Shown here: in pieces, positions 3,713-17,384 of the stretch
Layout of the letters: every line of letters begins with the position of its first letter
Position numbering within the stretch: position 1 is the stretch's first letter
NCBI RefSeq assembly: GCF_000377705.1
Contig: NZ_KB898629.1
Coordinates: forward strand, 138,189 to 162,188
Origin: Salsuginibacillus kocurii DSM 18087
GTDB lineage: Bacteria > Bacillota > Bacilli > Bacillales > Marinococcaceae
Direction of reading: 5' to 3'
DNA length: 24,000 nucleotides
The notes under the pieces: generated by a model
The model's input: only the letters and a program-made list of their open reading frames with translations
Told to the model about the DNA's origin: nothing
The model's database searches: none
Translations under genes and position numbers: made by a program

Positions 3713-5383
3713 ATGACTACAAAATGGTGGCAGAATTCAGTCGTTTATCAAATTTATCCGCGAAGTTTTAACGATTCCAACCAGGACGGGGTCGGTGACA
3801 TCCCCGGTATTATCCAAAAGCTGGACTACCTGTCCGATCTAGGCATTGATGTCATCTGGCTCAGCCCGGTGTATGCCTCACCGATGAAAGATAACGGTTA
3901 CGATATTTCCGACTATGAAAATATTGCGGAAGTGTTCGGTACGATGGAAGACATGGATCAGTTAATCGCGGAAGGGAAGAAGCGGGGAATTTCGATCATC
4001 ATGGATTTAGTCATCAATCATTCATCGGATCAGCACCCGTGGTTTCAAGAATCGCGACGCAGTAAAGACAACCCCAAACGGGATTTCTACATTTGGCAGG
4101 ATCCACGGGAAGACGGTGGTCCGCCGAACAATCTTCGGGCGGTGTTTGGCGGTTCCTGCTGGGAATATGACGAGCGTACCGGGCAGTATTATTTTCACTC
4201 TTTTGCAAAAGAACAGCCGGACCTCAACTGGGAAAATCCAGAGCTGCGCGAGCATTTGTACAAGATGGTACGATGGTGGCTTGATAAAGGGATTGGCGGC
4301 TTCAGGATTGATGCGATCACCTTTATTAAAAAGCAGCCATTTTACGATGATTTCACACCGGATGGACCGGATGGCCTGCAGGAAGTGGCGCCGAATCAGC
4401 CTGGAGTCGGCGAATTTCTGCAGGAATTAAAGCGGGAGACATTTGATCACTATGACATTTTTACGGTAGCAGAAGCTCCTGGGGTAGAGCCGGAGGAGAT
4501 CCCGGACTTTGTCGGTGAAGACGGCCACTTTGATATGCTGATTCGTTTTGATCACGTTGACATTGACATCGGACCGCATGGACGTTGGTTCCCGACTAAA
4601 GACTGGAAGTTGCAGGATTTCAAACAGGCGATCACAAACGCGCAAAAAGCAACGGAAAGTGACGGTTGGATGGCAAATTATTTGGAAAATCATGATCAGC
4701 CACGGGCGATCAGCCGGTTTATTCCGCAAGAAGATCAGAGTGAATTTACAGGTAAGATGCTTGCGACTACGTACTTCTTCCTAAAAGGAACGCCGTATAT
4801 TTATCAAGGACAGGAGATTGGTATGCTAAACACTGATTTTCAAAGCATCGATGAACTAGATGATATTTCGTCAATTGATCAGTATGAAGCTGCGCTGCGG
4901 CACGGTCATACGAAAGAAGATGCGTTCCGCTGGATAAGCCACCGGAGCCGGGATAATGCCCGGACACCGATGCACTGGAATGCCACTTACGCGTCTGGGT
5001 TTAGTGAAGCAGCACCTTGGCTAAAAGTAAGCCGTGATTACGAGGAAATTAACGTGGCAGAAGCTGAAAGCCGACCCGACTCGCTTTTTCAATATTATAA
5101 ATACTTGATCTATCTCCGACACAACAGCTCTTACAGCAGCGTGCTCATTTCTGGAGATTATGAAGAGCAGTTTGCGAATCATAAGCAAGTGTTTGTGTAC
5201 ACACGTACATTGGAAAACGAGCGCGTGATCATACTTGCCAATTTTACGAACGAAGAAGCAGAGCTTACTTTCGACACGCACCTTGGCACCTGGATTTTCG
5301 GCAACTTGGATAGCACGTGTGTAAACGGTAAAGAAGTAAAACTTCGTCCCTACGAAACCGCCGTCGTAGAATGGCCAAAATAA
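3713..5383 (+). CDS. malL: GH13 oligo-1,6-glucosidase / alpha-glucosidase
   Basis: The N-terminus WWQNSVVYQIYPRSFNDSNQDGVGDIPGIIQKLDYLSDLGIDVIWLSPVY is near-canonical. GH13 regions are present: DLVINHSSDQH, GFRIDAITFI, EAPG and ENHDQPR. Length is 556 aa. The symbol is given by analogy to B. subtilis MalL. Substrate is not determinable from sequence. Confidence 0.9.
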   Translation: MTTKWWQNSVVYQIYPRSFNDSNQDGVGDIPGIIQKLDYLSDLGIDVIWLSPVYASPMKDNGYDISDYENIAEVFGTMEDMDQLIAEGKKRGISIIMDLVINHSSDQHPWFQESRRSKDNPKRDFYIWQDPREDGGPPNNLRAVFGGSCWEYDERTGQYYFHSFAKEQPDLNWENPELREHLYKMVRWWLDKGIGGFRIDAITFIKKQPFYDDFTPDGPDGLQEVAPNQPGVGEFLQELKRETFDHYDIFTVAEAPGVEPEEIPDFVGEDGHFDMLIRFDHVDIDIGPHGRWFPTKDWKLQDFKQAITNAQKATESDGWMANYLENHDQPRAISRFIPQEDQSEFTGKMLATTYFFLKGTPYIYQGQEIGMLNTDFQSIDELDDISSIDQYEAALRHGHTKEDAFRWISHRSRDNARTPMHWNATYASGFSEAAPWLKVSRDYEEINVAEAESRPDSLFQYYKYLIYLRHNSSYSSVLISGDYEEQFANHKQVFVYTRTLENERVIILANFTNEEAELTFDTHLGTWIFGNLDSTCVNGKEVKLRPYETAVVEWPK

Positions 5384-5425
5384 AAAAATAAATGAGCGAT
5401 AGTCCGTGCAGTGCGCGGATAGTAG

Positions 5426-5457
5426 CCCCTTACTCAGCAGTTGCTTGTAGTAGGGGG
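5426..5457 (+). terminator. Putative intrinsic terminator of the sugar operon
   Basis: CCCCTTACT ... AGTAGGGGG is an imperfect stem (one bulge). It lies about 40 nt after the malL-like stop. The T-tract is weak (ATCTTTAATT). Confidence 0.5.
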
Positions 5458-5540
5458 ATCTTTAATTCTGCGATGAAAACATTTTCATTGAGATCCTTAA
5501 ACCACTGAAACGATGCCTTACTAGCATATTTATTTGAATA

Positions 5541-5576
5541 AAGCAGCCAGCGGCTCGAGGTCAAAAGTCGTGCCCC
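5541..5576 (+). repeat. Solo fragment of the GC-rich repeat family (type B unit) that forms the array at 10445-11047
   Basis: The 19 nt GGCTCGAGGTCAAAAGTCG (5552-5570) are identical to 10594-10612, in the same orientation. The flanks are partially similar (aagcAGCcAGc / aagcGGCaGGg; Tgcccc / Cgccct). Confidence 0.6.
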
Positions 5577-6057
5577 GGAGAAATGTTATTAACTCGCCAA
5601 GAAGAGCAGAAAAATAAGCAATCCCCTCTCCTAGAAGATCAACAGTGGGAAGAGTTAAGTTGGATCGTACATGAAGCATTGGAATGGATAACACCTTTAT
5701 TGATCCCCTTATCAAAAAAAATGTTATTTTTATCCAGTGTGACCCCTCAATCTTCGAATCGTTTCCGTTTTAGAATATATGATCAATATTAAACGGAGTT
5801 TATCAGGGATTGGCGCGGAGAAACCACTGATCGAGTAAAAGTATAGTATAGCATAGAATTATTTATTAAAGGACGGCAGTTACACACTGCTTCCGTGGTC
5901 ATCGTTATTCCTCCTGTTATGTTGGGTGTTTGGTTACTTTCATCATAACGGAATAACGATGGCTTTAGCTATACCTTTAGCTGTTGCATTTAATTTTATA
6001 ATCAAACGTCGGAAATATTTTTAATTTATGGTAATTTTTACTTTCCGTTAAAGATTT

Positions 6058-6063
6058 ATAATG
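6058..6063 (+). promoter_or_regulatory. Candidate -10 box (TATAAT) upstream of the bacteriocin gene
   Basis: A perfect TATAAT lies 57 nt upstream of the ATG at 6120. No convincing -35 is found at 16-18 nt spacing. The RBS GAGGAGAGG is at 6109-6117. Confidence 0.3.
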
Positions 6064-6119
6064 TTAGCATAACTATCATGGTTTTTTAAACCTGAAGAAC
6101 TATCTGTGAGGAGAGGCTT

Positions 6120-6515
6120 ATGAAAAAATTATTTCTATCTATTCCTGTTGCAGCTTTGTTCGCAATACCCGCACATGATACTTTAGCAGAAGATGATATC
6201 ACAGAAGGGGAAGGTATCAATTTAGACGAGTTGATGGAAGAAAACGAATCTGGTGAAATCGGTCCTGGATATAATGAAGAAGTTAGTGTTAATAGTAACC
6301 CAGGAAATGGCCCTGATGGTGGAGGATATCATAGTGTAAACTGGCACGGAGATACTCATACATCAGTTTATGACCATTACGAATTAACCCATAGAGCAAG
6401 TGCTGGCAATTCAAGATCAAATGTACGAAGTGCATGGGAAAGACAAGGAACAACAGCAAGGGCCACGATAATATCAACTCTAACAGGAAACACAGCAAAT
6501 TGGGCTACTAGGTAA
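6120..6515 (+). CDS. Lactococcin 972-family bacteriocin precursor (Sec signal, acidic pro-region, conserved C-terminal core)
   Basis: Signal peptide is MKKLFLSIPVAALFAIPAHDTLA|ED. The C-terminal 65 aa are GGGYHSVNWHGDTHTSVYDHYELTHRASAGNSRSNVRSAWERQGTTARATIISTLTGNTANWATR. By eye they align to mature Lcn972 (EGTWQHGYGVSSAYSNYHHGSKTHSATVVNNNTGRQGKDTQRAGVWAKATVGRNL...). The shared pattern is W.(H)G, S.Y.H, TH.A and G..A[KR]AT[VI]. The gene is followed by the family's hallmark DUF1430 membrane protein and dedicated ABC ATPase. Confidence 0.7.
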   Translation: MKKLFLSIPVAALFAIPAHDTLAEDDITEGEGINLDELMEENESGEIGPGYNEEVSVNSNPGNGPDGGGYHSVNWHGDTHTSVYDHYELTHRASAGNSRSNVRSAWERQGTTARATIISTLTGNTANWATR

Positions 6516-6525
6516 TTCCTAAACG

Positions 6526-6563
6526 AAAAGATAATAGGCCAAAATATGCCTATTATCTTTTTC
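6526..6563 (+). terminator. Intrinsic terminator/attenuator between the bacteriocin gene and the immunity/transport genes
   Basis: AAAAGATAATAGGC (6526-6539), loop caaaatat, GCCTATTATCTTTT (6548-6561), continuing into a T-run. The stem is 12-14 bp and perfect. Confidence 0.75.
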
Positions 6564-6591
6564 ATCCGAAGGAGACTAAAGGAGACTAAAT

Positions 6592-8757
6592 GTGAACAAA
6601 ATCATATATTGTTTATTAGGGACAGTTTTCATATTAATAAACATATTTGGTTTTAATTTATTTAATGAGAAACTATCCTACAATATTTTATACAACGATT
6701 CGGATATTCTGACAGTAGATTTTAATGGTAATGAAAATTTAAATATCGAAGATATTCAAAGATTTTCAGAGAAAGAAGAAGTTAACATATCTCAATATAA
6801 TTTCTTTACTGAGGACAGAGTGAATATATATTCAACTAACTTAAATATTGATCCAAACCTTCATATCCATGAAGGTTCGCTCCCTCACGATAGTGAATAT
6901 ATATCTAATATCAATAATTACTCGACTGAGCAATCTGGTGTTATCACATTTCCCTTAACAAACATGGAAGTGCGTTATTATAACTACCAAGATATAGTGA
7001 ATGTTGGAGTAGATAACAGATTCTATATCAATGGAGATACCTCTCCAGAAAGCTTAGAACGTGTAAAGGAGTTCTTTTCTCAATATGGAGAGGTTTCATT
7101 TGTAAACGATCAAGTAAGTCTTCTACAATTGTTGAATTTCCCTTTATTACTAATTTCATTTTTATCATTAGTTCTTTATGTTATTGGGCTATTTTTCTTT
7201 TTAATACAAAATAGAAAAATGTACATTCTTCTTAACTTATGGGGTAGTTCTAATGTCAGAATTATCCTTGTGACAATTAAGCTTCTTATAAAACCCATTT
7301 GTATTATTTTTAGTGCTTTATTTGCAACGTTGCTGATTATAATTTTATATTTAAATCAAACTGAATACTTATTAAGCTATCTATCTACTTTTCTAGCATT
7401 TAATATGTTTATAATTACTGCAATTATTACATTGACAGTGATGGTTTCTGCTTCTCTCATTTCGATGATTAATATGAATACCATAAAGGGAGACTTCCCT
7501 TTTCGAAAAGTACACTGGGTTGCTGTAGCAACTAAAGTTACAACATCATTAATCTTCTTTACTATGATTGGCTTTTCAATAAACAGTTTCTTAGATTTAA
7601 ATGAGAAATTGGATAGTTTTGATTACTGGAATGAGGCACAAGATATTTATAGATTGCAGTTAACTGCAGGAATAGAATATTTAGAGGAAAATTTGGAACA
7701 AGATAGAGATTTTAATAATAGAATGGACCGTCTCTACAAACAGTTAGAGTCCGAACATAATGCTTTTCTAATGGGTTCAGAGAACTTTTATCCACTAGAT
7801 AATGACACCGAATCTGAACCTGAATACATTTACACCCTTAATGCTGGAGAGGAAGAATTTTACTTATCATCTGGGAGAAGAGTAACTATAAATGAGAATT
7901 ATTTAAACTATAATCCTATAGAGGACGTAAATGGTGATAGTGTAGTCTCTCAATTAACTTCAGATTCAAATACTTTGGATATTTTAGTTCCAGAACAATT
8001 TTCAAATCTAGAAAATGAGATTTTAGATGAGTATTTGGATTACTTCTACTTCCAAAAAGTTGAAGTTGATGACATTTATAATGAGGAATTAAATGAACCC
8101 TTAAATGACACATCTGTGCAAGACCTTTCTATTAATATTATATATACAGAAGAAGGTCAAGATTATTTCACTTATAAAAGCAACACAGGTGATAATCAAA
8201 ATAACATTACAGATCCAATTGCTATTGTATATGACAATAACTTTGATAATTCTTATATAAGTGCATTATCAAGCACATCCTTATATTTCGAGGATTATTC
8301 GTCTGGAAACGCATTCAACAACATAGAACCTTATCTAATGGACATTGGCGTTCCAGAGGTCGGCTCAGTTACTTCTGTTTTCAACGAAGCCAGTGATGAA
8401 ATTGTAGAGCATTCAAGGCTATTACTACAACAATTAATAGGTTTGATTGTTATTTTTACCTTTATCATCATATTTTTAAGTCTATATATATGGACGTATG
8501 TCGCGATAAATATGAAAAAGCTCAATCTAAAGTATATCTTAGGTTATTCGTTTTTTAATCGTAATAAACACTTGTTATTAATTAGCTTTTTAACAACTAT
8601 TATTATAGGATTATTGTCTTCCCTGATTCACGATATTCTTTTAATCATACCCATTGCATTTCTCTTCTTTGCTATTGAATTTTTGATAATTTATGGGCTA
8701 AGTACTAATTTTGTAAAAAAGAATATAAATAAGGTCTTAAAAGGGGATTATTTATGA
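6592..8757 (+). CDS. Bacteriocin-associated integral membrane protein (DUF1430 / bact_immun_7tm-like, MacB/FtsX-type architecture)
   Basis: 721 aa. Layout is an N-terminal TM, an ecto-domain of about 160 aa, a cluster of TMs (residues about 180-330), an acidic/Asn-rich ecto-domain of about 280 aa, then three C-terminal TMs ending ...NKVLKGDYL. The GTG start lies 5 nt after a duplicated AGGAGACTAA. The gene is very AT-rich. Position and size match the putative immunity/permease gene of Lcn972-type loci. Confidence 0.75.
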   Translation: MNKIIYCLLGTVFILINIFGFNLFNEKLSYNILYNDSDILTVDFNGNENLNIEDIQRFSEKEEVNISQYNFFTEDRVNIYSTNLNIDPNLHIHEGSLPHDSEYISNINNYSTEQSGVITFPLTNMEVRYYNYQDIVNVGVDNRFYINGDTSPESLERVKEFFSQYGEVSFVNDQVSLLQLLNFPLLLISFLSLVLYVIGLFFFLIQNRKMYILLNLWGSSNVRIILVTIKLLIKPICIIFSALFATLLIIILYLNQTEYLLSYLSTFLAFNMFIITAIITLTVMVSASLISMINMNTIKGDFPFRKVHWVAVATKVTTSLIFFTMIGFSINSFLDLNEKLDSFDYWNEAQDIYRLQLTAGIEYLEENLEQDRDFNNRMDRLYKQLESEHNAFLMGSENFYPLDNDTESEPEYIYTLNAGEEEFYLSSGRRVTINENYLNYNPIEDVNGDSVVSQLTSDSNTLDILVPEQFSNLENEILDEYLDYFYFQKVEVDDIYNEELNEPLNDTSVQDLSINIIYTEEGQDYFTYKSNTGDNQNNITDPIAIVYDNNFDNSYISALSSTSLYFEDYSSGNAFNNIEPYLMDIGVPEVGSVTSVFNEASDEIVEHSRLLLQQLIGLIVIFTFIIIFLSLYIWTYVAINMKKLNLKYILGYSFFNRNKHLLLISFLTTIIIGLLSSLIHDILLIIPIAFLFFAIEFLIIYGLSTNFVKKNINKVLKGDYL

Positions 8758-9377
8758 TCGAACTTAATAGGATAACCAAATCTTTTGGTGACGAGATTAT
8801 ATTCAATAATTTTTCTTTACATGTAGAAAAAAATGAATTTGTTGCTATCCTGGGTAAGAGTGGTTCTGGTAAAACCACTCTGCTTAATTTAATGGGTTCT
8901 CTTGAAAAACCAGATAGTGGTACCATCTCAATAATGGGGGTTACTAACCCATTTGGAAAAAAGTTAATGTTGTTGAGGAGATACAACATAGGGTATATAT
9001 TTCAACATTATTTTTTATTGGAAAATGAAACAGTGTATGAAAACTTAAAAATGGGAGCTATTTATAATAAAAAAATAGATAAAGATAGAATTGATAAAAT
9101 TATTACGGAGGTTGGCTTAGAACCATCTTTCTTGGATAAAAAGGTTTATAAGCTAAGTGGTGGGCAGCAACAAAGAGTAGCATTCGCACGGATAATGTTA
9201 AAGCCTTGTGAGATAATATTGGCAGATGAGCCCACAGGGAACTTGGATACTAACAATAAAGAGTTAATTATCTCCCTTCTAAATCACCTTAAAGACAGTG
9301 GCAAAACTATAATTTGTGTAACCCATGACAAAGAGGTTGCTACGAACTCGGATAGGATATTAGATATTTCCAATTAG
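8754..9377 (+). CDS. ABC transporter ATP-binding protein (lactococcin-972-group / MacB-LolD-like ATPase)
   Basis: Motifs present: Walker A GKSGSGKT, Q-loop IFQ, signature LSGGQQQR, Walker B IILADEPT, D-loop GNLD, H-loop VTHD. The ATGA overlap with the upstream stop suggests translational coupling. It has 207 aa and no fused TM domain. Confidence 0.9.
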   Translation: MIELNRITKSFGDEIIFNNFSLHVEKNEFVAILGKSGSGKTTLLNLMGSLEKPDSGTISIMGVTNPFGKKLMLLRRYNIGYIFQHYFLLENETVYENLKMGAIYNKKIDKDRIDKIITEVGLEPSFLDKKVYKLSGGQQQRVAFARIMLKPCEIILADEPTGNLDTNNKELIISLLNHLKDSGKTIICVTHDKEVATNSDRILDISN

Positions 9378-9393
9378 TGAGGTGCTTGCACTT

Positions 9394-9576
9394 ATGAAGA
9401 TTTTTACCTTAACGGCCATAAATTGTATATTAATATTACTTACAGTCTTTATACACAAAATAATATACCGTATACTTCTATTAGATTATGAGAGTTTGGT
9501 TTTGTATTGGGGATTATTTTTATTAGTATTTTTTCCTATGAGTCTAGTTGTAAATATAATATTTAACAAGAAATAA
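9394..9576 (+). CDS. Small hydrophobic two-TM protein (60 aa) of unknown function, last gene of the island operon
   Basis: GAGGTG (9380-9385) lies 8 nt before the ATG at 9394; the ORF-track start is GTG 9382. Sequence: MKIFTLTAINCILILLTVFIHKIIYRILLLDYESLVLYWGLFLLVFFPMSLVVNIIFNKK, giving two hydrophobic spans. It has the same strand and AT-rich composition as the cassette. No family was recognised. Confidence 0.45.
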   Translation: MKIFTLTAINCILILLTVFIHKIIYRILLLDYESLVLYWGLFLLVFFPMSLVVNIIFNKK

Positions 9577-9815
9577 TCACAACTGAATACGGCGGACGAT
9601 TCTTACCACCTTTTGCGAGGAAATGTACCACTCAGGAATTCTTTACCACACATGAAAAGAATGGATTAAATATTACCATTACCATTGGATAGAGCCGGTT
9701 GTGCCATTTGTAAGCCACTAAAAAGGAAGTCATCGCATTAAATATCGTGAATCGTTGTTTGAAGCAAAAAGTGTTCAAAATTAACGAGCAAAAATTGTTC
9801 ATTTCTACTTGACGG

Positions 9816-10295
9816 TTACAATTGCACAATAACGAGTGCAGAAAACCCTTTTTCTTTATGGATAGTGGATTGATTCAAAAACGATCTTGGTATAGTATGA
9901 CTCCATTCCCCATGACAGTTCTAAACTATCAGTTGTTGCTTCATAGGAAACTCTTTCTCCTGATTCTGCGTTCGAAACGTGAGGAAGAGCAACCCCGAGA
10001 GATTAGCTTCGTGCTGATCCATTGCCATATACATCAAGTCATCAATAATAACGAGATTTGCTTCACGGGTGCTGATAAATCAGGATGTTCCCTTAACCAA
10101 TCCAATATATATGATTGATACGGGTATAACTTTTTTTGTTCTTGTTTTCAGTGTTTTTACCCATTCGACCGTTTCATCGAATTGTTTCTCTAAATAAGCA
10201 TATACCGTGTTTCTTGAGAGTCCACATTTCCTCGCAATAGCAGCAATACTAAATCCTTCTTTTTTTAACTGATGAACATAAACATGTTTTCCAAT
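9816..10295 (-). pseudogene. Decayed IS21-family element: istA N-terminal HTH fragment fused by internal deletion to a frameshifted istB C-terminal fragment
   Basis: Manual minus-strand translation gives three pieces:
- IGKHVYVHQLKKEGFSIAAIARKCGLSRNTVYAYLEKQFDETVEWVKTLKTRTKK, an IstA-type HTH;
- a frameshift to LYPYQSYILDWLREHPDLSA;
- then LVIIDDLMYMAMDQHEANL... (IstB Walker-B region), ...ATTDSLELSWG... and ...STIHKEKGFS..., spread over three frames.
There is no ATG start (TAA precedes an ATT codon). Confidence 0.6.
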
Positions 10296-10444
10296 TTACT
10301 CACCTTTCGTAGCCCCCTGATCCCCACTCAATATTTCCATTAAGTGTACATGATCAAAAGGAAGTAGTAACGAAAAGTGTTCAATTCTATCAAGCAGAAT
10401 GTGTTAACTTTAATCTAGCAGTTACATGAGTATGGGTCTGCTTC

Positions 10445-11047
10445 AATCATAGCTTGTCCAGCTGCGAGCGCCATTGGCTTGTGATCCCTTTTCCCCGCCC
10501 TGCGGCGGCAACAGCCTCCTCGGCGGGGAAGAAGGGCCCTGCGCCAATGGTCAGGCGCCCTCCGCTTTTCGATGTCTAGCTTCAAGCGGCAGGGGCTCGA
10601 GGTCAAAAGTCGCGCCCTTTCAAAGCCAAAAAGCGGCTTTGTGCAGCGCTCGCCTTTTGCTTGACCCCTAGCGCCGCTTTCCGCTTTTCTGTCTAGCTTC
10701 GGGCGTTAGCGGCTTGCAATCGCTTCTGGACCGGACTGCGGCGGACGCGTCCTCCTCGCCGGTTAAGAAGCGTGCTGCGCCGCTACCCAAACGCCCTCCG
10801 CTTTTCTGTCCAGCTTCGCGGACTAACGGCTTGAGATCCCTTTCTCCCACCCTGCGGCGGCAACAGCCTCCTCGGTGGGAGAGAAGGGCTCTGCGCCGCT
10901 GAGCAAGCCCGCTCCGCTTTTCTGTCTAGCTGCGGCGCCTAGATGCTCGAGGTTTTTTCTGCCCCTGACTTCGAGGAGCGAGCTCCTCTGCGCAGGTGCT
11001 GAAAAACTTGTCGCCTCTAAGCAAGGCGCCTTCGCTTTTCTGTCTAC
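10445..11047. repeat. Tandem array of GC-rich repeat units with a period of about 117 bp (5 units plus partial ends), in two unit subtypes
   Basis: The core TCCGCTTTTCTGTCYAGCT starts at 10561 (with a 2-nt insertion), 10680, 10797, 10913 and 11031 (partial). Spacings are 119, 117, 116 and 118 nt. Type A units (about 10445-10560, 10680-10796, 10797-10912) share CTGCGGCGGCAACAGCCTCCTC inside a long hairpin. Type B units (10561-10679, 10913-11030) share GCTCGAGGT. Spot GC is 73% for 10501-10560. Confidence 0.85.
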
Positions 11048-11541
11048 CTGATCCAGCCGGGGTGCCATTGGAAATGGGTGTTGGTTGGTTCGGAGGGAGG
11101 ATCGAAAATAAATGATGGGTAGGGTAGGGAGAGAGCGGGGGTGTAGTCTGGTGAGATGAATTTGAGTGATTTCAAATCTGGGTTGGTTGGGAAATGTTCA
11201 TCGCTGTATACACGGCATTCAAAGACGATCAGTGTGTACTCCACTTGATCGCCGTTTGGATCTTCGTATTGAAAGTCTTCGCCGCCGAAGACACCGGTCA
11301 GCTGGGTAGGGACTACGTCGAGCCCGGTGTCTTCACGTACTTCACGGATTAGAGCTTGGGCAGGTGCCTCTCCGGGTTCAATGGCCCCAGATGGCAGGCT
11401 CCATCCTTCAATTGTTCCATTATCTTTAAATAAAATTTGTCCTTCTTCATTACGGATGATAGCGGCGACACTTGGCATAAACACTCTTTCCTGGCCGATT
11501 TTTTGACGCAGTTTTTTATAATAGCTTGACATGTGCATCAC
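11044..11541 (-). CDS. Nudix hydrolase
   Basis: Nudix box GAIEPGEAPAQALIREVREDTGL fits GX5EX7REUXEEXGU. It has 165 aa. Its stop codon (11044-11046) lies inside the last partial repeat core of the array. Confidence 0.85.
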   Translation of the reverse strand: MMHMSSYYKKLRQKIGQERVFMPSVAAIIRNEEGQILFKDNGTIEGWSLPSGAIEPGEAPAQALIREVREDTGLDVVPTQLTGVFGGEDFQYEDPNGDQVEYTLIVFECRVYSDEHFPTNPDLKSLKFISPDYTPALSLPYPSFIFDPPSEPTNTHFQWHPGWIR

Positions 11542-11681: not shown

Positions 11682-12059
11682 TCAGCTTACTAAAAAAAAG
11701 CCGACCGCAAACAGCAGCAGGGATCCTGCAAAGGAGAGCGTAATATAGGCGAAGCAGGCGCCTAACCTGCGTTTTTCTAAAAGCTGAAAGGCTTCGACAC
11801 TAAAGGTGGAGAAGGTGGTAAAAGCGCCGAAAAATCCGAGTCCGATGGTAAGGTAAAGGGTGTCGCTGTAAATGTCAAAAGGGACGCTGCTGTAGTTGAA
11901 TCCAATAAAAAGGCCGAGCCCGAGCGCGCCGAGGATGTTTACGACGAGCATGGCAGTTGGAAAAGGAGGATTCGGCACTGCTGACATCACGGCTTTGCCG
12001 AGCAGGTAACGGAGAATGGAGCCGGCAGCGCCTCCGAGCATGAGGAGGGTGATGTTCAT
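11682..12059 (-). CDS. crcB: Fluoride ion channel CrcB/FluC (paralog 2 of a tandem pair)
   Basis: 125 aa with four TMs. Motifs: GGAAGSILRY, VNILGALGLG and GAFTTFSTFSVE. Its start overlaps the upstream crcB stop by 4 nt. Confidence 0.9.
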   Translation of the reverse strand: MNITLLMLGGAAGSILRYLLGKAVMSAVPNPPFPTAMLVVNILGALGLGLFIGFNYSSVPFDIYSDTLYLTIGLGFFGAFTTFSTFSVEAFQLLEKRRLGACFAYITLSFAGSLLLFAVGFFLVS

Positions 12060-12466
12060 AAGTGTTGCCCCCTTTGTGGCTGCTTGGAACTCTTAGCAAT
12101 ACGTTCGCCGAGCAAAAATCCGGCGAAGGCCAGGAGGACCCCGCCAAATAATGTAATGGTTATGTACAAGGCCACAGCGCTGGTGGAGCTGGTGTCGGCG
12201 AGTAAAAAGGTGTCGGAGGCGATGGTGGAAAACGTTGTATAACCGCCACATAAACCTACGCCGAGTCCAGCCTTCACCCATTCTTTCGGGGTACGCAAGG
12301 CAAAAAATCCAGTGAGAGCGCCGAGCAATAGGCTGCCGCTTAAATTTTCAATGACAGTCCCTAGCGGCAGACCGGTGGCAAGGGTGGAGAGATTGATGCC
12401 ATAACGAAGGAGGGTACCAAGCGCGCCTCCAATCCCTATGGCTACTATAATTTTAAACATAAGCAT
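12056..12466 (-). CDS. crcB: Fluoride ion channel CrcB/FluC (paralog 1 of a tandem pair)
   Basis: Motifs: GIGGALGTLLRY, ENLSGSLLLG and GGYTTFSTIASD. I place the start at the internal ATG (MLMFKIIV..., 12466) rather than the ORF-track 12505, because CrcB proteins begin just before the first TM. Confidence 0.85.
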   Translation of the reverse strand: MLMFKIIVAIGIGGALGTLLRYGINLSTLATGLPLGTVIENLSGSLLLGALTGFFALRTPKEWVKAGLGVGLCGGYTTFSTIASDTFLLADTSSTSAVALYITITLFGGVLLAFAGFLLGERIAKSSKQPQRGQHL

Positions 12467-12780
12467 CGCCTCAGTTAAGGAAAGATGTCTCCCAAATGGT
12501 AACACATTACAGGTTGTACAGTTACATAGAATTTATTAGTCTGCCAAAAGAATTTGGCAAAACTCTTGCAATCGACAGGCTGCAATCGTACATTGAGATT
12601 GTTTCAGCGAATGATGTAGAAATATCGGAGTAGAAAGGTGGGTTGCGCAAACATCAATCGTTTTGCTCAACCGTGAGAAGAAGTACGTGTTCTTTCACTG
12701 GGAACGGGTCCGGAGCTCTTCTTAAGAAGCATAGGCACTGCGCAAAGGAATAGTTCGTCTAATGTAATGTAAAAGGAGTA

Positions 12781-14116: not shown

Positions 14117-14146
14117 GAGTGCATTCCTATTATGAGCATAGCAGTG

Positions 14147-14377
14147 TTACTGGTGTTTTTGCTGATCATGCACTTCGTCTTTTAACTCTTCACGAAAGCC
14201 TTCTACCGCTTGCTCGCGACGTTCGTTTTTCGATTCGATCTGTTGTTTTTGTTCCTGGCTCATCTCTTCATCGTGTGCTTTTTCATAATCATGCGCTTCG
14301 TTACGGTTTTGAAGGGTCTCGTCAATCATTTCTTTTAAACGTTCCGGGTTGTTTGATCTGTCATCAGGTTTTGCCAT
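14147..14377 (-). CDS. tlp: Small acid-soluble spore protein Tlp
   Basis: MAKPDDRSNNPERLKEMIDETLQN...KNERREQAVEGFREELKDE matches the conserved PDDRS.N.E.L N-terminus and the charged C-terminal helix of Bacillus Tlp. GAAGGAGG lies 8 nt before the ATG at 14377. The ORF-track start at 14395 is upstream of the RBS. Confidence 0.75.
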   Translation of the reverse strand: MAKPDDRSNNPERLKEMIDETLQNRNEAHDYEKAHDEEMSQEQKQQIESKNERREQAVEGFREELKDEVHDQQKHQ

Positions 14378-14408
14378 GCTATGAACCTCCTTCACCAGTG
14401 TCGGTTTG

Positions 14409-14438
14409 TAGTTTGAGTGGAAGGGGAAGAAAATATAC
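14409..14438 (-). promoter_or_regulatory. Candidate forespore (sigma-G/F-type) promoter of tlp
   Basis: The minus strand reads GTATA - 18 nt - CAAACTA, ending about 30 nt upstream of the tlp ATG. This resembles the forespore sigma consensus (GnATA ... CAnnnTA). It is pattern-based only. Confidence 0.3.
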
Positions 14439-14647
14439 CTATCTTTTTTAACATCCAGAGTGATGTTTTACCCTGGGAAATTGTCTTACTCTCATGGCTG
14501 AATTTCCATAAATGTGGCGATTTTATGTGTCAAAAAGAGTGTTTACGAATTTTTTACATATAATTAATTTTCCTAATATTGAAACGATGTTTTCTTCCGT
14601 TTATAATTTTTTGTGTAATTCACAATATACGAACAGGAGGCGGTTGG

Positions 14648-16868: not shown

Positions 16869-17384
16869 TTAATGCCGATAAATAGCATATCTTATGTAAG
16901 CACTAGTTTCGAGTAATCCTTTATACTCAAGTCCAATCTTTTCTGCAACTCGAATAGAGCCTTTATTCATTTTATTAATGTCAGCAACTATTTCTTCAAT
17001 TTCCAGGCTTTCAAAAGCATAGTGTAAGATGACTTTTGCTGCTTCTGTCGCGTAACCCTTCCCCCAATATTTTGGTTTTAACCTCCATCCAATCTCAATT
17101 TCTGGACCCACCGCATCCATTGGAATTAACAATATCCATCCTATAATTTGTTGCTGGTCGTCTTTTGATTCAATCATCCAGTACCCCATACCTGCTGGAT
17201 ACTGAGCTTCAGTTCTTTTCACAATAAATTCTCGGTGTTTTCTTTCATTACCTACAAGCGTTTTTATCTCTGGAACATATTTCACAACCTCTGCTTCACG
17301 ATCCATTTCCATACATAGTTCCACATCATCAAGAGTGCGTTCTCGTAGAATTAACCTATCTGTTTCAAAAGTCCTCAACATCAC
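16869..17384 (-). CDS. GNAT family N-acetyltransferase (RimJ/RimL-like, Acetyltransf_3 type)
   Basis: The N-terminus is typical (TDRLILRERTLDDVE). The motif A region is WGKGYATEAAKVILHYAFE. It has 171 aa. Confidence 0.8.
   Translation of the reverse strand: MMLRTFETDRLILRERTLDDVELCMEMDREAEVVKYVPEIKTLVGNERKHREFIVKRTEAQYPAGMGYWMIESKDDQQQIIGWILLIPMDAVGPEIEIGWRLKPKYWGKGYATEAAKVILHYAFESLEIEEIVADINKMNKGSIRVAEKIGLEYKGLLETSAYIRYAIYRH

Follow-up and report, generated by a model that had tools for sequence, protein, structure and literature searches.

Lactococcin 972 (Lcn972) of Lactococcus lactis is a Sec-secreted, unmodified bacteriocin encoded by the lcn972-orf2-orf3 cluster of plasmid pBL1, a cluster that helps to maintain the plasmid (PMC4055356). 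The bacteriocin gene is followed by genes for a DUF1430-type protein and an ATP-binding cassette (ABC) ATPase, and the operon is described in the literature as consisting of these three genes. The precursor has 91 amino acids (aa), and its 66-aa mature form starts right after the signal peptide. Here we analyze a 24,000-nucleotide (nt) stretch (the window; contig NZ_KB898629.1, positions 138,189 to 162,188) of the genome of Salsuginibacillus kocurii DSM 18087, a relative of Bacillus from salt lakes. Four co-directional genes at 6120-9576 make up a related cassette. We consider it, with a probability of about 0.8, to be an intact, horizontally acquired and plasmid-derived operon of the lactococcin-972 family, belonging to the long-form subfamily that includes Lmo2776 of Listeria monocytogenes.

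A first-pass annotation of this DNA regarded Lcn972 as the only well-characterized member of its family. This is outdated: Lmo2776 (L. monocytogenes), streptococcin B (pneumococcus), mediterrocin (Mediterraneibacter gnavus) and Sil (Streptococcus iniae) have all been studied, and a structure of formosin D exists (9HKJ; a literature search for 'formosin' returned no paper on this bacteriocin). Because several other members have already been characterized, the premise of novelty fails. Lcn972, Lmo2776, streptococcin B and mediterrocin are known to be antibacterial, whereas Lcn972 alone has been demonstrated to bind lipid II.

In members of the long-form subfamily, a stretch of ~40 residues that contains a conserved x-[IV]-[ND]-[LV]-D motif separates the signal peptide from the core; Lcn972 lacks the corresponding 42-aa extension of the S. 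kocurii peptide. The Lmo2776 precursor, like that of S. kocurii, is 131 aa long and has a signal peptide. The full S. kocurii precursor is 39% identical to a Listeria variant, including the motif right after the signal peptide. Over the core, identity rises to 49% when the comparison is with the synthetic peptide Gly69-Lys131 of Lmo2776, which is active on Prevotella copri and Bacillus subtilis (PMC6854461). Both peptides contain the motif EGE-x-(I/S)-(N/S)-LD-x-LM, and in both the core ends in GNxANWAT(K/R). The Listeria locus (lmo2776-lmo2775-lmo2774 plus a gene for a WGxF protein) has the same gene order: the peptide, a DUF1430 protein of ~722 aa, a 207-aa ATPase and a WGxF protein of ~67 aa. 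A review figure already marks the WGxF gene beside the Lmo2776 operon (PMC7076858). The two loci differ in that the Listeria host is a food-borne pathogen and S. kocurii a haloalkaliphile, in the far more acidic extension of the S. kocurii peptide (net charge -13) and in their permeases, which are only ~30% identical. Unlike the Lmo2776 locus, the S. kocurii copy lies among mobile-element relics and its peptide is annotated as a hypothetical protein.

Two Bacillus plasmids, p10720 of B. mycoides (NZ_CP092838.1; 10.7 kb, MOBV) and a 136-kb plasmid of B. subtilis (NZ_CP061871.1), carry cassettes with an architecture identical to that of S. kocurii. On both, the Prokaryotic Genome Annotation Pipeline names all four products: lactococcin 972 family bacteriocin, DUF1430 domain-containing protein, ABC transporter ATP-binding protein and bacteriocin-like WGxF protein. 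The B. mycoides peptide and permease are, respectively, 39% and 41% identical to their S. kocurii counterparts, and both plasmid peptides have the (G)VNLD motif. The Bacillus copies differ from ours in being plasmid-borne and in being recognized by automatic annotation; we found no experimental characterization of them in the literature searched.

The peptide gene (6120-6515, + strand) encodes a 131-aa pre-bacteriocin with a signal peptide at residues ~1-23, an extension at residues 24-65 and a 66-aa core predicted to form a lactococcin-972-type beta-sandwich. The N-terminus (MKK, hydrophobic residues 4-18, then TLA|ED) aligns with the signal peptides of the subfamily and has no double-glycine leader, suggesting a Sec-type signal peptide with cleavage after ~Ala23. 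An exhaustive HMMER search through 1.84 billion representatives recovered 48 representatives of the subfamily, mostly 120-145 aa long. A 47-sequence subfamily profile matches Lcn972 (2LGN) with an E-value of 1.3e-7 and formosin D (9HKJ) with 1e-4, and hhalign aligns the subfamily with Lcn972 at a probability of 95.7% (E 1e-8). Supplied with the subfamily alignment, AlphaFold2 (AF2) folds residues 71-130 into a six-stranded sandwich with a predicted local distance difference test score (pLDDT) of 92-97. When this core is compared with the PDB by Foldseek, 9HKJ ranks first and 2LGN third, both at a probability of 1.00, with target TM-scores of 0.63 and 0.67; the match to 2LGN spans 62 columns at a root-mean-square deviation of 3.0 Å and 24% identity. 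All six nearly invariant positions of the subfamily (M1, G69, H91, N97, G123 and N124) are kept, and the core is near neutral (net charge +1; subfamily median +3). Judged by its profile matches and modeled fold, the peptide is a lactococcin-972-family protein. The public S. kocurii record, 100% identical to it, reads 'hypothetical protein': the gene is too divergent for routine annotation, and this is the sole new point of the present copy. The cassette type itself is already known and widely annotated and holds nothing surprising for a bacteriocin specialist.

Directly 3' of the peptide gene, on the same strand, follow genes of the TIGR01654 and TIGR03608 types. The first (6592-8757) starts with GTG and encodes a 721-aa bacteriocin-associated membrane protein of the DUF1430 type, hereafter the permease. 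It passes TIGR01654 over the entire model (positions 1-681 of 681; 193.4 bits, cut-off 189.35) and DUF1430 over residues 619-718 (30.6 bits, cut-off 28.2). Its hydropathy indicates 7-8 transmembrane (TM) segments in two FtsX-like halves, each consisting of a TM helix, an extracytoplasmic domain and three further TM helices. Every Foldseek match of its AF2 model at a probability of at least 0.85 is to a type VII ABC permease, with YbbP first (E 2.4e-8, probability 1.00), then Spr0695, MacB, BceB, LolC/E and FtsX; the Pfam clan of DUF1430 also contains FtsX (PMC6588880). The permease may thus have a fold of the MacB/FtsX type, the model resembling type VII ABC permeases only. The fused two-half arrangement recalls YbbP and BceB, although the permease has 7-8 TM segments as opposed to 10 in BceB, and the extracytoplasmic domains are unrelated in sequence. 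Immediately 5' of the GTG codon, at 6570-6591, a tandem duplication, AAGGAGACTAA-AGGAGACTAA, forms two motifs that resemble ribosome-binding sites.

The second gene (8754-9377, + strand) encodes a stand-alone ABC ATPase of 207 aa and is translationally coupled to the permease gene, whose stop codon overlaps its start codon in the sequence ATGA. Its best match, over its full length, is TIGR03608 (241.5 bits, against a cut-off of 254.85); next come NCBIfam models including DarD, FtsE, the MacB nucleotide-binding domain, LolD, DevA and YbbA (E 1e-34 to 1e-50). After its own family it is thus closest to the ATPases of the type VII systems (YbbAP, MacB, BceAB, LolCDE, FtsEX) that also provide the best structural matches of the permease. 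Its translation preserves the Walker A, signature, Walker B and H-loop motifs. The last open reading frame (ORF; 9382-9576) opens with GTG at 9382 and would give 64 aa, but its product is probably the 60-aa protein starting at ATG 9394 (9394-9576, + strand), because residue 5 is the first to align with NF037932 ('bacteriocin-like WGxF protein') and this ATG is preceded, at a distance of 10 nt, by a GAGGTG ribosome-binding site. The protein has two TM segments and the motif YWGLF, and it matches NF037932 at 91.9 bits (cut-off 40, E 2.5e-26). A WGxF homologue occupies the same position in six other loci: those of plasmid contig L002, of L085 and L086, of B. mycoides p10720, of the B. subtilis plasmid and of Listeria. 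In a further relative, L087, two transposase genes take the WGxF slot, and the cassette adjoins a LanM-type lanthipeptide synthetase and a LytTR two-component system (L087 1-5064 and 9951-12423). Two tandem long-form peptide genes (140 and 144 aa) precede the permease gene in L086 (4516-5396) and in an ENA/JGI contig, which suggests two-peptide or diversified variants among the relatives.

The first-pass annotation had described these four genes from the sequence: a lactococcin-972-type peptide, a DUF1430-like protein of 721 aa with a MacB/FtsX-like layout, a coupled stand-alone ATPase and a 60-aa two-TM protein. All four are where it placed them (6120-6515, 6592-8757, 8754-9377 and 9382-9576) and essentially what it took them to be, and the predicted structure of the core agrees with the Lcn972 beta-sandwich that it had proposed for comparison. 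We also considered a pseudogene cassette and reject it, since all four ORFs are intact and align end to end with the family models and the ATPase motifs are preserved.

A horizontal origin from a plasmid pool is well supported, because plasmid-borne relatives, flanking mobile-element relics and composition point the same way. The sole close homologue of the peptide (50% identity) is encoded on an 8.3-kb metagenomic contig of 29% GC, whose 25-nt terminal overlap is consistent with a circle. Its other genes include those for a Rep3 initiator and a relaxase as well as a MobC-like gene, and all four cassette genes have collinear counterparts on it, with identities of 50, 42, 59 and 59%. In addition to the two Bacillus plasmids above, related B. 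subtilis plasmids of 142-156 kb match the permease and ATPase. Immediately 3' of the cassette lies a decayed IS21-family insertion sequence (9600-10300, - strand), comprising the N-terminal helix-turn-helix of istA followed by frameshifted istA and istB fragments. The NF033546 IS21 transposase model matches it at E 5.4e-9 (model positions 2-71 of 294), and short blastn matches lead to genes annotated as istA and istB on plasmids of Bacillaceae; there are several stops and frameshifts and only fragments remain, so the element is, as the first-pass annotation had it, a relic. A 17-nt inverted repeat, 94% complementary (9610-9626 and 10224-10240), has one arm within the istA helix-turn-helix remnant (the codons for IARKCG), which points to another piece of this insertion sequence, in the opposite orientation, just 3' of the WGxF gene. 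On the 5' side, a 69-aa ORF (5583-5792, + strand) may be a YolD-like fragment and thus another mobile-element relic: the Pfam YolD model (PF08863) matches it weakly (22.0 bits, cut-off 27.5, E 1.8e-4, profile positions 8-45 of 94), no NCBIfam model does, and blastn of the left flank (5384-6119) against plasmids yields marginal matches only.

The composition of the cassette sets it apart from the rest of the window, as had been noted from four spot GC values that prove exact (18.3, 25.0, 51.7 and 73.3%). The island as a whole (5700-10440) has a GC content of 32.4%. The cassette has 31.0%, compared with 44.9 ± 1.2% (minimum 42.4%) for 233 windows of equal length elsewhere in the stretch and ~45% for the S. 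kocurii chromosome. GC content at third codon positions (GC3) is 0.22-0.32 in the four genes as compared with 0.43 ± 0.08 in 18 backbone genes. The encoded proteins had been called rich in Asn, Ile, Lys and Tyr; the permease is indeed rich in Asn, Ile and Tyr, as well as in Leu and Phe, but not in Lys (3.1%). Two backbone genes, 14119-14451 and 16869-17384, likewise have a low GC3 (0.24 and 0.29), and compositionally atypical genes therefore occur in the window beyond the island.

Two hairpins lie next to the peptide gene. Between the peptide and permease genes, a terminator-like hairpin (6525-6562, + strand) consists of a 15-bp stem followed by the U-run UUUUUCAU. The fold of 6510-6595 has a minimum free energy of -22.7 kcal/mol and a centroid, the hairpin alone, of -18.4 kcal/mol (z -4.0), and plasmid contig L002 has a classic terminator at the equivalent position. 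This hairpin is probably an attenuator that would set the ratio of toxin to immunity expression. The other (5897-5964, + strand), ~150 nt 5' of the peptide gene, is strong (-32.7 kcal/mol, z -5.3, with none of 200 shuffled sequences folding as well) and has no U-run on either strand. It gives a marginal blastn match (E 4e-4) inside IS30 transposase genes of Enterococcus plasmids.

We propose the following mechanism. One transcript would start 5' of 6120, with the 6525-6562 hairpin limiting read-through, so that the peptide gene would be expressed above the three downstream genes. Sequence and family precedent suggest that Sec would export the 131-aa precursor and that it would be cleaved after ~Ala23. 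The released protein, whose 66-aa core is homologous to Lcn972 and Lmo2776 by profile and fold, would kill or inhibit competitors, most likely via cell-wall synthesis; lipid II as its target would be carried over from Lcn972. A type VII machine of the MacB/FtsX/BceAB kind, built from the double-FtsX-like permease and an ATPase dimer, would protect the producer: ATP hydrolysis in the cytoplasm would drive the extracytoplasmic domains to strip the bacteriocin from its membrane target, with no export of the peptide. BceAB shields its lipid-cycle target from bound peptide, and it is from this precedent and from mechanotransmission by MacB, together with the putative type VII membership, that we infer the permease-ATPase pair to be a bacteriocin immunity device. 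The 60-aa WGxF protein, consistently linked to the other genes, may be a conserved accessory membrane subunit. The cassette itself would have come from a low-GC Bacillota plasmid pool and been fixed between a GH13 sugar operon and a Nudix gene, with the accompanying mobile DNA decaying later.

The extension of the peptide deserves separate consideration. Its ~42 residues (24-65) carry the GINLD motif and a net charge of -13, the most acidic among 47 representatives (median -2); AF2 places a strand (28-34) and a helix (36-43) over the motif region with a pLDDT of 77-89. The extreme acidity may be an adaptation to a saline, alkaline habitat. In mediterrocin, all residues after the signal peptide are retained in the mature form, while Rolhion et al. 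assumed maturation of Lmo2776 at Gly69 (PMC6854461), which implies a second processing step. We tentatively raise the idea, which we consider rather doubtful, that the extension is a functional pro-domain as opposed to a spacer. It would then either act as an intramolecular inhibitor or chaperone, so that the bacteriocin does no harm close to the producer, or offer the proposed type VII immunity machine a site at which to dock, before removal by a second cleavage, and its acidification in S. kocurii would suit the habitat or neutralize the core.

A number of results weigh against the reading of the locus as an acquired bacteriocin operon with its own immunity device. The peptide falls just below the PF09683 cut-off (21.9 bits against 22.0, E 2.6e-4), a model matched by 33 of 47 subfamily members, and below that of TIGR01653 (23.3 bits against 32.1, E 5.8e-5), which the other members examined pass at 43-82 bits (61.8 for the 50%-identical homologue P0002). 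A phmmer search of the PDB with the peptide found only chance matches to antibody light chains, and the subfamily profile was needed. The Foldseek matches of this small domain have modest E-values (4.8e-3 and 2.5e-2). Because the direct Pfam and TIGRFAM matches of the peptide are below the cut-offs, its membership rests on transitive, profile and fold evidence, with the subfamily profile linking it to Lcn972. The permease model, built on a 10-sequence alignment, reaches medium quality (pLDDT 66.7) and low TM-scores against type VII permeases (0.2-0.36), and neither Pfam nor PDB searches gave a sequence-level match to FtsX. No convincing consensus sigma-70 promoter was found 5' of 6120, where counts are no higher than in shuffled sequence, and the island encodes no regulator gene; expression of the cassette is therefore only putative. 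For no locus of the Lcn972 type have immunity or transport roles of the B and C genes been verified by experiment (PMC11796350), and the literature has yet to establish the target of Lmo2776, which makes lipid II an extrapolation for this subfamily. Finally, whichever host is examined, the cassette stays at ~29% GC and its flanks are richer (28.7-29.7% as against 34-37%), and low GC alone therefore cannot date the transfer.

Three other readings were weighed. The permease, ATPase and WGxF protein could instead form a dedicated exporter or maturation machine, for instance one that reads the N-terminal extension to release or process the peptide at the surface. NCBIfam names TIGR03608 'putative bacteriocin export ABC transporter', the motif conserved downstream of the signal peptide might be what such a machine recognizes, and the Gly69 maturation assumed for Lmo2776 implies a second processing step. 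However, the peptide has a typical Sec signal, as expected of a family whose members are reported to be Sec-dependent, and streptococcin B is independent of the bacteriocin transporters ComAB and BlpAB. The Pfam scan revealed no peptidase domain in the permease, and type VII ABC systems perform mechanical work at the outer face of the membrane without translocating a substrate (PMC12646458). Moreover, cloned lcn972-orf2-orf3 raised the minimal inhibitory concentration of Lcn972 for L. lactis, and the literature treats orf2-orf3 as immunity genes. We therefore regard an exporter as unlikely, if a little less so than the two readings that follow.

It is slightly more improbable still that the cassette persists chiefly because it confers resistance to the bacteriocins of neighbors (as a 'cheater' module), its divergent peptide being inactive or unexpressed. 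Natural pneumococcal scb loci do keep the B and C genes without a functional peptide, and both the low scores of our peptide on the family models and the lack of a recognizable promoter would fit; against this, the ORF is intact, it has a strong ribosome-binding site and all six nearly invariant residues, and AF2 folds its core, half identical to an active synthetic peptide, with confidence. We give a similarly small chance to the AT-rich stretch being an old resident of the lineage that owes its low GC to the amino-acid make-up of membrane proteins. The uniform GC content of the cassette across hosts is what this would predict, the acidity of the extension looks like adaptation to a halophile, and the heavy decay of the adjoining IS21 element means that any transfer was not very recent. 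But GC3, which depends less on amino-acid composition, is low as well, the peptide was found in one genome only with its nearest relative on a plasmid, and relics of mobile elements lie on both sides. Acquisition of the operon from plasmids thus remains our preferred account. The first-pass annotation had called a recent acquisition likely; a horizontal, plasmid-like origin stands, but recency is not established, because an intact cassette adjoins heavily degenerate mobile genes and has ~29% GC in every host examined.

The island is flanked by members of one repeat family. On the host-side right boundary, an array of five tandem GC-rich (61%) hairpin units of ~117 nt occupies 10446-11050; near the left edge of the foreign DNA there is a solitary fragment of 33-36 nt (5540-5575), corresponding to the left arm of a unit. 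The fragment matches 10590-10617 at 26 of 28 positions and shares an exact 19-mer with 10594-10612 (chance expectation 0.01). The units are 62-82% alike and each folds as one long imperfect hairpin; RNAalifold gives 34 pairs, of which 23 are maintained by compensatory changes among the copies. At this level of similarity the array escapes Tandem Repeats Finder, and Rfam has no matching family, whether for the entire window at gathering thresholds or within 5300-11200 at E <= 1. The claim that repeat copies bracket the island thus holds only in part, there being five units on the right and a single fragment on the left, and the junctions are unlike those of a simple insertion into one repeat unit. 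The repeats could be a dispersed family of S. kocurii resembling repetitive extragenic palindromes or miniature inverted-repeat transposable elements (REP/MITE).

Beyond the repeats, the neighbors of the island are ordinary chromosomal genes: those for a sugar ABC importer and a GH13 enzyme on the 5' side, and those for a Nudix hydrolase, a CrcB pair, a chromate transporter and a 5'-nucleotidase anchored by S-layer homology (SLH) domains on the 3' side. The matches listed in a contig scan with the GH13 protein were taken up by distant GH13 enzymes (32-50% identity), with no Salsuginibacillus locus among them, and a search with the Nudix protein gave nothing above 55% identity besides S. kocurii itself. 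The CrcB (fluoride channel) genes lie at 11682-12505 on the - strand; the window has no fluoride riboswitch at Rfam gathering thresholds.

The analysis corrects a public annotation: a gene recorded as encoding a 'hypothetical protein' is that of a lactococcin-972-family bacteriocin, accompanied by what we take to be a complete immunity module. With this gene, the long-form subfamily of Lmo2776 now reaches a haloalkaliphilic member of the Bacillaceae, and the pairing of an unusually acidic extension with a near-neutral core in this natural variant could help to separate the roles of core and extension and to probe activity at high salt and pH. The link from the DUF1430 permease to the type VII machines YbbP, BceB and MacB, suggested by its predicted fold, would give the family a concrete and testable immunity mechanism, and the conserved WGxF gene is a fourth component that most descriptions of a 'three-gene' operon have overlooked.

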